This document shows positions 14,968 to 15,017 of a DNA stretch of 39,938 bases, piece by piece. The notes under the pieces were generated by a model. The model saw only the letters and a list, made by a program, of their open reading frames with translations, was not told the origin of the DNA and ran no database searches. Origin of the DNA: a virus; IMG/VR virus record IMGVR_UViG_3300045988_020036, positions 1-39,938 of that record. The stretch is one strand, 5' to 3'. Positions within the stretch are counted from its first letter, which is position 1, and each line of letters starts with the position of its first letter. The translations under genes were made by a program, and so were the position numbers.

Positions 14968-14996
14968 TTGACTAATTACTATAGTCATATTATAAT
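14968..14996 (+). promoter_or_regulatory. Consensus promoter reading toward the repressor/lysogeny genes
   Basis: TTGACT (14968-14973), 17 nt, TATAAT (14991-14996). Confidence 0.75.
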
Positions 14997-15017
14997 CCCT
15001 AATTAGAGATTTGTCAA
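14989..15017 (-). promoter_or_regulatory. Consensus promoter reading toward the early-lytic genes; its -10 box overlaps the -10 of the plus-strand promoter
   Basis: Minus strand: TTGACA (15017-15012), 17 nt, TATAAT (14994-14989). Confidence 0.75.

Follow-up and report, generated by a model that had tools for sequence, protein, structure and literature searches.

In this viral genome, which is circular and belongs to a temperate phage, the first lytic gene and the repressor gene are separated by 166 bp that form the immunity switch and probably carry three housekeeping-sigma promoters with overlapping footprints: a conserved rightward promoter, P_A, which would maintain lysogeny; a leftward promoter, P_lyt, which heads the lytic gene set; and a second rightward promoter, P_B, which is specific to this lineage. 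By their predicted geometry, P_B and P_lyt are a bidirectional promoter, an already known class. An initial annotation of the same DNA had described P_B and P_lyt as a face-to-face pair whose overlap hard-wires the choice between lysis and lysogeny. The motifs that it named are present and the region is indeed a switch, but the conserved repressor-side promoter is P_A (14935-14963), which it did not list.

The immunity region and its genes

The window, that is, the whole 39,938-bp stretch of DNA analysed, represents a complete contig; its terminal repeat measures 141 bp, the same as the assembler k-mer size, and the genome is therefore circular and about 39.8 kb long. All genes lie on the minus strand except those of a plus-strand lysogeny module at 15072-18947. 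The genes around the switch are as follows.

14743-14905, minus strand: first lytic gene, ATG at 14905, 53 aa, RBS AGGAGG
15072-15431, plus strand: repressor gene, 119 aa, XRE-type HTH and short helical C-terminal domain
15681-16994, plus strand: lipoprotein gene
17172-17843, plus strand: gene for an HTH protein with a membrane segment
17847-18947, plus strand: integrase gene

Because the other genes are all on the minus strand, the repressor promoter must fall inside the 166 bp that separate the first lytic ATG (14905) from the repressor ATG (15072); the layout excludes plus-strand transcription entering from the left. The gap thus has the arrangement that had been proposed for it, with a minus-strand promoter heading the lytic set and, starting at ATG 15072 as annotated, a plus-strand gene for an HTH-only repressor of the XRE type. 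This protein matches the Pfam families HTH_26 (1.3e-7) and HTH_3 (5.2e-6) and PHROGs 8, 2328 and 4, and its best match among solved structures is the Xre-family regulator of ICEBs1 (E = 4e-4). It shares with repressors of the XRE/Cro-C1 type an N-terminal HTH, a gene divergent to the lytic operon and an integrase gene on the same strand. We found no S24 or ImmA domain in the proteins scanned, the 119-aa repressor matching HTH families only, which agrees with the earlier statement that the repressor has no S24 peptidase and the neighbourhood no ImmA-like protease.

Other searches gave little. The LexA box GAACNNNNGTTC has one intragenic match, no more than expected by chance, and the LexA box GAACNNNNGTTT has three matches against 1.3 expected. 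The first lytic gene has no match in Pfam or PHROG, and an exact-sequence look-up of its protein returned none; Pfam and PHROG scans of a small convergent ORF (15492-15346) were likewise negative. When the switch was used in a DNA search of GenBank phages, nothing useful was obtained, the single match being 44 nt long, and a search of the literature for comparable switches in phages of Lachnospiraceae produced no relevant description. A gut Lachnospiraceae is the probable host, the sole basis for this assignment being one relative binned in a Lachnospiraceae genome.

Promoters of the switch and their conservation

The promoter elements in the gap are listed below. Transcription starts were placed 7 nt past the last base of the -10 box, the usual distance, and all of them are predicted.

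14935-14940, plus strand: TTGAAT, -35 box of P_A; TTGAAT in 18 of 20 switches, TTGCAT and TTGTTT in the other two
14953-14963, plus strand: TGTGt-TATGAT, TGTG motif and -10 box of P_A, with a 17-nt spacer between -35 and -10; predicted start about 14970, rightward
14968-14973, plus strand: TTGACT, -35 box of P_B, the repressor-side promoter of the initial annotation; lineage-specific
14991-14996, plus strand: TATAAT, -10 box of P_B, 17 nt from TTGACT; predicted start about 15003, rightward
15017-15012, minus strand: TTGACA, consensus -35 box of P_lyt, the early lytic promoter
14994-14989, minus strand: TATAAT, -10 box of P_lyt, 17 nt from TTGACA; predicted start about 14982, leftward

Positions, hexamers and spacers of P_B and P_lyt proved to be exactly as first described. 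In the sequence scan, the hexamers of P_lyt score 12/12 against the consensus and those of P_B 11/12. Their -10 hexamers have 4 bp in common (14991-14994) within ATTATAAT, which reads TATAAT on both strands and is the only overlap register in which both -10 hexamers can be perfect. Only four sites of at least 11/12 exist on the two strands of the 39,938-bp window (+12856, +14968, -15017 and -16297). When the 166-bp gap, at 73% A+T, was simulated 400,000 times with a first-order Markov model, a site of at least 11/12 arose with P = 0.0047 on the plus strand and P = 0.0058 on the minus strand, and on both strands together with P = 6e-5. The pair of motifs is far beyond chance.

Conservation was assessed in 20 distinct switch sequences, namely the window and 19 relatives; they belong to a mosaic family whose members are related, so that the counts given below do not come from independent sequences. 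Eleven of the loci were reached through a metagenome scan with the repressor alignment alone, independently of any promoter sequence, and the remaining ones were obtained from IMG/VR by protein or DNA pattern. P_lyt is kept in 20/20 switches as TTGACA, 16 or 17 nt and TATAAT, the plus-strand strings TGTCAA and ATTATA being invariant. P_A is likewise found in all 20, always placed exactly 25 bp leftward of ATTATA, with an invariant TGTG and a -10 box that reads TATATT, TATGAT or TATAGT. The TGTG motif upstream of a -10 box is typical of Gram-positive promoters. We read P_A as a promoter because its hexamers and TGTG are invariant or nearly so while the sequence of its 17-nt spacer varies. Its hexamers score 9/12, and the chance of a site of at least 9/12 in such a gap is P = 0.54; since a score of this kind is not rare by itself, the support for P_A rests on conservation and on the TGTG motif. 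A DNA pattern demanding only P_A led back to the members of this family, and P_lyt was intact in every one. A scan with a spacer one base longer returned 18 unrelated promoters only, which gives the size of the chance background. TAGAGA-16-TAGAAT (9/12), which lies between TGTCAA and the repressor RBS, was considered as another plus-strand promoter and rejected: its hexamers are half-sites that vary with immunity type. A scan for conserved RNA structure in the repressor leader as read from P_A found none (z = +0.52).

P_B has a narrower distribution. At the position of its -35 box, the window matches the consensus at 5/6 bases and the 19 relatives at 2-3/6, six of which share operators and repressor type with the window; this argues against P_B as the principal repressor promoter. 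It is kept in L133 and L134, further samples of the same phage with an identical repressor; public samples in which the phage occurs are ERZ27272125, SRR3992978 and SAMN05414969. In L134, a low-quality scaffold, the -35 and -10 boxes of P_A are altered and P_B is intact. The plus-strand TATAAT is present in 14/20 switches because ATTATA adjoins the 'AT' that opens the operator arm AATC... The window differs at six positions from the sequence most common among the relatives, and three of these changes convert GTGGTT into TTGACT; that all three should fall toward the -35 consensus has a probability of about 0.0012, a post hoc figure. Given TATAAT, the chance of a -35 box of at least 5/6 at a spacing of 16-18 nt is P = 0.019 per lineage and P = 0.24 that one or more of 14 lineages would have it. 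CTAATTA, a string similar to the operator core, came from the same substitutions as TTGACT; because the two arose together, the selective cause of the changes is ambiguous, and the evidence as to whether P_B was selected or is accidental is mixed.

Operators, repressor specificity and the lytic side

Two predicted operators and a putative half-site lie in the gap.

14994-15011: O1, an 18-bp palindrome, AATCCCTAA / TTAGAGATT, that fills the P_lyt spacer
15034-15051: O2, TTTCTCGAA / TTAGTGAAA, 40 bp from the O1 centre
15025-15033: lone half-site TTAGAATTT, tentatively assigned, adjoining O2

O1 is centred at -20.5 relative to the predicted start of P_lyt, at -0.5 relative to that of P_B and at +32.5 relative to that of P_A. 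With up to three mismatches allowed, AATCYCTAATTAGRGATT matches the window at O1 only, and exact matches to TCNCKAATTMGNGA occur in the window at O1 and O2 only. In a comparison of seven phages of the same immunity type, no sites other than O1 and O2 come within one mismatch, and the positions of these two are fixed. A cognate half-site occupies the same place as the lone one in other groups, as TTAGAGA in L008, L053, L055, L056 and L062 and as TAGGATT in the L001 group. The palindrome at the O1 position changes in step with the type of the N-terminal HTH of the repressor through five immunity groups, as follows.

Operator AATCYCTAATTMGAGATT: repressor N-terminus MEFCERL or MGFCERL
Operator AATCCTA-N4-TAGGATT: repressor N-terminus MQFVER
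Operator CACTAA-N1-2-TTAGTG: repressor N-terminus MNFSERL or MGFSDRL
Operator CACCAAtTTGGTG: repressor N-terminus MTFTERL
Operator TACAAC-N5-GTCGTA: repressor is an unrelated protein

The palindrome is independent of the first lytic gene, of the C-terminal domain of the repressor and of the left-hand 25 bp. The motifs, their conservation and this covariation of operator with HTH are direct readings of the sequences compared, and they point to O1 as the primary site of the repressor.

The four operator candidates of the initial annotation are all present at the coordinates given for them, namely CTAATTAG at 14999-15006, gactaattact at 14970-14980, cgaattagt at 15039-15047 and gactaattgg at 15657-15666. 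Two of them stand: CTAATTAG forms the core of O1, and GAATTAG that of O2. The other two, at 14970-14980 and 15657-15666, fail the model that O1 and O2 fit exactly. ACTAATT occurs six times against 3.9 expected and is thus not enriched, the six relatives of the same immunity type have no sites like these two, and the sequence 14966-14983 matches O1 at only 9/18 positions.

On the lytic side, three candidates for a Cro were considered: the first lytic gene, a 105-aa ORF (14037-14354) and the HTH protein encoded at 12954-13157. None of them covaries with the operators. Phages that share their operators have different first lytic genes, one type of this gene (MKRFEIWAEF...) co-occurs with four operator types, and the HTH protein is 72-74% identical across different immunity groups. 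In the approximately 2.5 kb of lytic-side sequence compared, we found no DNA-binding protein that covaries with the operators, which suggests that the switch lacks a classical Cro.

Working model and relation to known switches

With starts placed by the 7-nt rule, P_B would start about 21 bp rightward of P_lyt, and the two RNAs would run apart. The pair is thus divergent, not face to face as had been proposed, and because the predicted RNAs have no nucleotides in common, the roughly 20 nt of complementarity at their 5' ends that had been postulated falls away. The statement that the pair is more extreme than pR/pL of 186 does not hold either, the pair being a divergent bidirectional promoter instead. 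Each -35 box does lie within the transcribed region of the opposite promoter, as had been noted. The convergent arrangement that characterizes P2 and 186 is predicted for P_A and P_lyt, the RNAs of which would overlap by about 13 nt. P_B (14968) sits 33 bp downstream of P_A (14935), and if the polymerase footprint is assumed to extend from about -55 to +20, the footprints of P_A, P_B and P_lyt would overlap and occupancy of the three would be mutually exclusive. For P_B and P_lyt, the earlier conclusion that two polymerases are barred from simultaneous occupancy is in keeping both with this geometry and with work on bidirectional promoters (PMC12825309).

Our working model is as follows. P_A would be the ancestral repressor promoter, placed outside the operators. 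In the absence of repressor, the perfect-consensus P_lyt would win most encounters with polymerase and exclude P_A; because the predicted overlap of the two transcripts is only about 13 nt, their polymerases would collide at the binding step and not mainly during elongation. A-rich tracts occur upstream of the P_lyt -35 box. Once bound to O1 and O2, the repressor would block P_lyt and P_B alike, and the silencing of P_lyt would free P_A from competition and so maintain repressor synthesis. P_A would transcribe through the repressor-bound operators, which may add some negative autoregulation. P_B would have arisen only in this phage, when point changes supplied a latent TATAAT with a -35 box; if active, it would yield a burst of repressor only at empty operators, in head-on competition with P_lyt. 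We infer promoter activity, competition and the use of each promoter at a particular stage from these arrangements. Two counterpoints deserve mention: repressor bound at +24 to +41 of P_A could strongly block P_A transcripts, and P_B (11/12), which looks stronger than P_A, could be the main promoter in this phage.

A more far-reaching version of this model, which we put forward as speculation, supposes that this family of gut Firmicute phages does without any Cro. Polymerase exclusion between P_lyt and P_A would then be the sole anti-repressor arm of the switch, to which P_B would have been added as a maximally competitive bidirectional partner that the repressor silences and that biases the first decision after infection. 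If this is true, the phage would hold a natural bidirectional promoter of that kind. Apart from this version, the lack of an operator-specific Cro in the approximately 2.5 kb compared makes the family a candidate for asking to what extent the geometry of promoters could by itself provide one arm of a bistable switch.

Three other readings have to be weighed against our three-promoter model. The initial annotation made P_B the working repressor promoter, so that the orientation chosen by polymerase at the shared -10 alone would hard-wire the decision. Such a toggle would account for the occurrence of 11/12 and 12/12 promoters around one shared ATTATAAT, for the retention of P_B in three samples of this phage and for similar bidirectional pairs upstream of the repressor genes of the distant relatives L080 and L111, and polymerase exclusion is documented at bidirectional promoters (PMC12825309). 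We nevertheless regard it as improbable. O1 spans P_B from -9 to +9, and because bound repressor would shut P_B off together with P_lyt, P_B alone would provide no positive feedback, no maintenance of lysogeny and no bistability; the -35 box is absent from the 19 relatives, six of which have the same operators and repressor type; and with RNAs that do not overlap, one of the claimed layers of interference is gone. The opposite reading, that P_B is a silent or negligible by-product and that only P_A and P_lyt matter, is somewhat easier to credit, though still unlikely. TTGACT would then have arisen by drift or through other selection, such as for an extra weak operator, since the same substitutions yield the core-like CTAATTA; the plus-strand TATAAT of the 14 switches occurs without any -35 box, and the chance values of 0.019 per lineage and 0.24 over 14 lineages are compatible with accident. 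Against this, a near-consensus sigma-70/sigma-A promoter whose spacer is 17 nt long will normally be active as long as nothing bars access to it, three of the six substitutions fall toward the -35 consensus, and 14966-14983 is too poor a match to O1 to fit the operator model.

The third reading concerns P_A itself: the conserved block TTGAATTTTT ... TGTGnTATATT might owe its conservation to a role in the lytic mRNA leader, to the binding of another regulator or to recombination between modules, with the repressor mRNA starting elsewhere. The block does lie inside the transcribed leader of the lytic mRNA and adjoins its RBS, a mosaic boundary between lytic-side and immunity modules is nearby, and hexamers of only 9/12 leave room for such an explanation. 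We consider it very unlikely, given that invariant hexamers and TGTG around a variable 17-nt spacer are the pattern of a promoter, that the lytic leader has no conserved pairing (0 predicted pairs; z = -0.41), that the relatives share no plus-strand promoter candidate besides P_A in a gap closed to transcription from the left, and that unrelated matches to the P_A pattern look like ordinary promoters upstream of genes.

The three-promoter model finds its closest parallels in two known systems. Bidirectional promoters, as described by Warman, Grainger and colleagues, have a shared, near-symmetrical -10 region and divergent starts 7-25 bp apart, and the two polymerases exclude each other sterically (PMC10268837, PMC12825309). 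P_B and P_lyt likewise have overlapping -10 elements on opposite strands of a short, near-symmetrical sequence (ATTATAAT), and their predicted spacing of about 21 bp falls within that range, the commonest value in the class being 18. Competition at such promoters appears once transcription is strong, and the basal activity of five tested E. coli examples was too low for it unless they were activated (PMC12825309). Unlike these E. coli examples, P_B and P_lyt are both at or near full consensus in -35, -10 and spacer, so that competition should be maximal; they thus offer a natural test case, for which the relatives with the same operators but without the plus-strand -35 box are a natural control. 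The phage switch setting, an operator across the shared core and a third overlapping promoter also set the pair apart from the class.

In P2-like phages, the promoters face each other with an overlap of 40-60 bp, the repressor has its operators across the lytic promoter, and interference goes from the lytic to the lysogenic promoter but not in the opposite direction (PMC7498355). P_A and P_lyt are likewise convergent by prediction, O1 fills the spacer of the lytic promoter and the lysogenic transcript would read through it; interference by a strong lytic promoter, relieved by repressor, is to be expected here too. The predicted overlap is much shorter (about 13 nt), the first lytic gene is not of the Apl/Cox type, has no family match and varies independently of the switch, no repeats of the Apl/Cox kind lie between the promoters, and the repressor is a small XRE-type HTH protein in a Firmicute host. 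Overlaps like those of 186 are predicted for more distant repressor relatives: in about 30 distinct loci, a strong minus-strand promoter adjoining the repressor gene is faced by a plus-strand promoter, with a predicted RNA overlap of 52-86 nt in 28 and 37 nt in one. L080 combines the facing promoter with a bidirectional partner, the same three-promoter layout as in our phage, and L111 has the bidirectional pair only. By prediction, the face-to-face logic known from P2 and 186 of Proteobacteria is thus also common in uncultured gut Firmicute phages, with overlaps that run from about 86 nt to 13 nt and then past zero to interleaved divergent promoters.

More distant comparisons can be made with lambda, the contrasting case in PMC7498355, and with TP901-1. 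At lambda OR, PR and PRM lie back to back and share operators for CI and Cro. As there, repressor and lytic genes diverge here from a short control region with multiple palindromic operators, the specificity of which is set by the HTH; unlike in lambda, the promoters are interleaved or convergent, the main operator lies between the -35 and -10 boxes of the lytic promoter, no Cro that covaries with the operators was found at the start of the lytic operon, and the repressor has no S24 (LexA-like) self-cleavage domain. TP901-1, a lactococcal siphovirus of Gram-positive hosts, has promoters placed back to back and a CI with an N-terminal HTH and helical oligomerization domains but without self-cleavage; its first lytic gene encodes MOR, a small protein that is not a classical Cro and that works with CI. 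A small HTH repressor without a self-cleavage domain and a first lytic gene that is not a Cro are found here as well; because this gene varies independently of repressor type, a specific partner like MOR is argued against. What is new in the present switch is the combination, a variant of the face-to-face switch joined to a bidirectional promoter, and not a new principle.

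Modular repressors and the joint at the lytic promoter

The repressor genes of the window and of loci L001-L011, L053-L062 and L070 were compared. The repressors are modular, with the N-terminal HTH domain and the C-terminal helical domains shuffled independently of each other; comparison across the family also indicates that the operator is set by the N-terminal HTH domain. DNA lying left of the common ATTATA (the -10 box of the lytic promoter P_lyt, read on the plus strand), which comprises the lytic leader and the conserved repressor-side promoter P_A, assorts separately from the immunity module, and we therefore place a recombination joint at the lytic -10 box or close to it.

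The copy of the switch recovered from the same phage in another sample (L134, 710-912) differs at both boxes of P_A (-35, TTGAAT to TGAAAT; -10, TATGAT to AATGAT) and in O1, the main predicted repressor operator (TTAGAG to TTATAG), and leaves unchanged P_B, the plus-strand promoter whose -10 box overlaps that of P_lyt. The L134 scaffold includes a run of N, and these changes in P_A and O1 may be sequencing errors.

A small ORF convergent to the repressor gene

The minus strand opposite and downstream of the repressor gene carries the following features:
15326-15296, minus: terminator (hairpin and T-run), directly 3' of the small ORF
15492-15346, minus: small ORF of 48 aa with the RBS GGAAGG, convergent with the repressor gene
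15618-15604, minus: LexA-like site TCGAACATCTGTTTG, upstream of the small ORF
15648-15633, minus: LexA-like site TCGAACATATATTTTG, upstream of the small ORF
16269-16297, minus: near-consensus promoter (TTGACA, 17 nt, TATGAT; 11/12)

The small ORF overlaps the last 86 nt of the repressor gene, and its terminator falls within the repressor codons for the inter-domain linker. This arrangement of ORF and terminator recurs in eight family members (the window, L001, L002, L003, L006, L008, L057 and L060), the repressors of which have C-terminal domains of several unrelated kinds. The encoded protein matched no known family in Pfam and PHROG scans. It shows similarity to the cognate repressor's C-terminal domain, with z = 8.0 and 5.5 in the two type-A pairs tested (window and L001) and z = 6.0 in L008, whereas pairs of different type gave z of at most 3.4. 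The small-ORF protein is a candidate anti-repressor, which would act via domain mimicry, antisense interference or both; if so, it would supply the induction route that the initial annotation found missing. Neither of the LexA-like sites is significant by itself. The promoter at 16269-16297, one of just four sites in the window at 11/12 or better, lies antisense within the lipoprotein gene and is directed toward the small ORF and the repressor gene.

Integrase-proximal gene and genome ends

Two further features lie outside the switch:
17172-17843, plus: protein encoded immediately 5' of the integrase gene, with a coiled-coil segment, a membrane segment at its C-terminus and a weak HTH match
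1-141 and 39798-39938: exact 141-bp direct repeat at the contig's two ends

Homologues of the former (30-52% identity) occur in the same module of many relatives. The length of the latter equals the assembler k-mer size (record name k141_...), which marks the contig as a closed circular genome of ~39.8 kb.

Predicted RNA elements in the lytic region

Three elements were found in the lytic region:
14480-14543, minus: type II hammerhead ribozyme, Rfam RF02276 (43.2 bits, E = 9e-8)
12856-12884, plus: perfect-consensus promoter (TTGACA 12856, 17 nt, TATAAT 12884)
12913-12947, plus: G+C-rich hairpin followed by a run of 8 T, downstream of that promoter

The ribozyme match is full-length and exceeds the RF02276 gathering score of 37; within the early lytic transcript it occupies the gap that separates the ORFs at 14545-14694 and 14037-14354, ~440 nt beyond the lytic promoter.

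The promoter and the hairpin with its T-run (unit 12856-12955, plus strand) predict a ~65-nt RNA, antisense to the lytic operon and flanked by the HTH gene (12954-13157) on one side and the Gp157-like gene (12366-12854) on the other. Rfam gave no match for this unit. The promoter/terminator unit is kept in L005, L006, L007, L010 and L011, and the terminator stem varies in sequence among relatives with the hairpin retained; the promoter's -10 box is bracketed by a palindrome (CGGTTATAATAACCG in the window). The predicted RNA is reminiscent of P22 sar or lambda oop.
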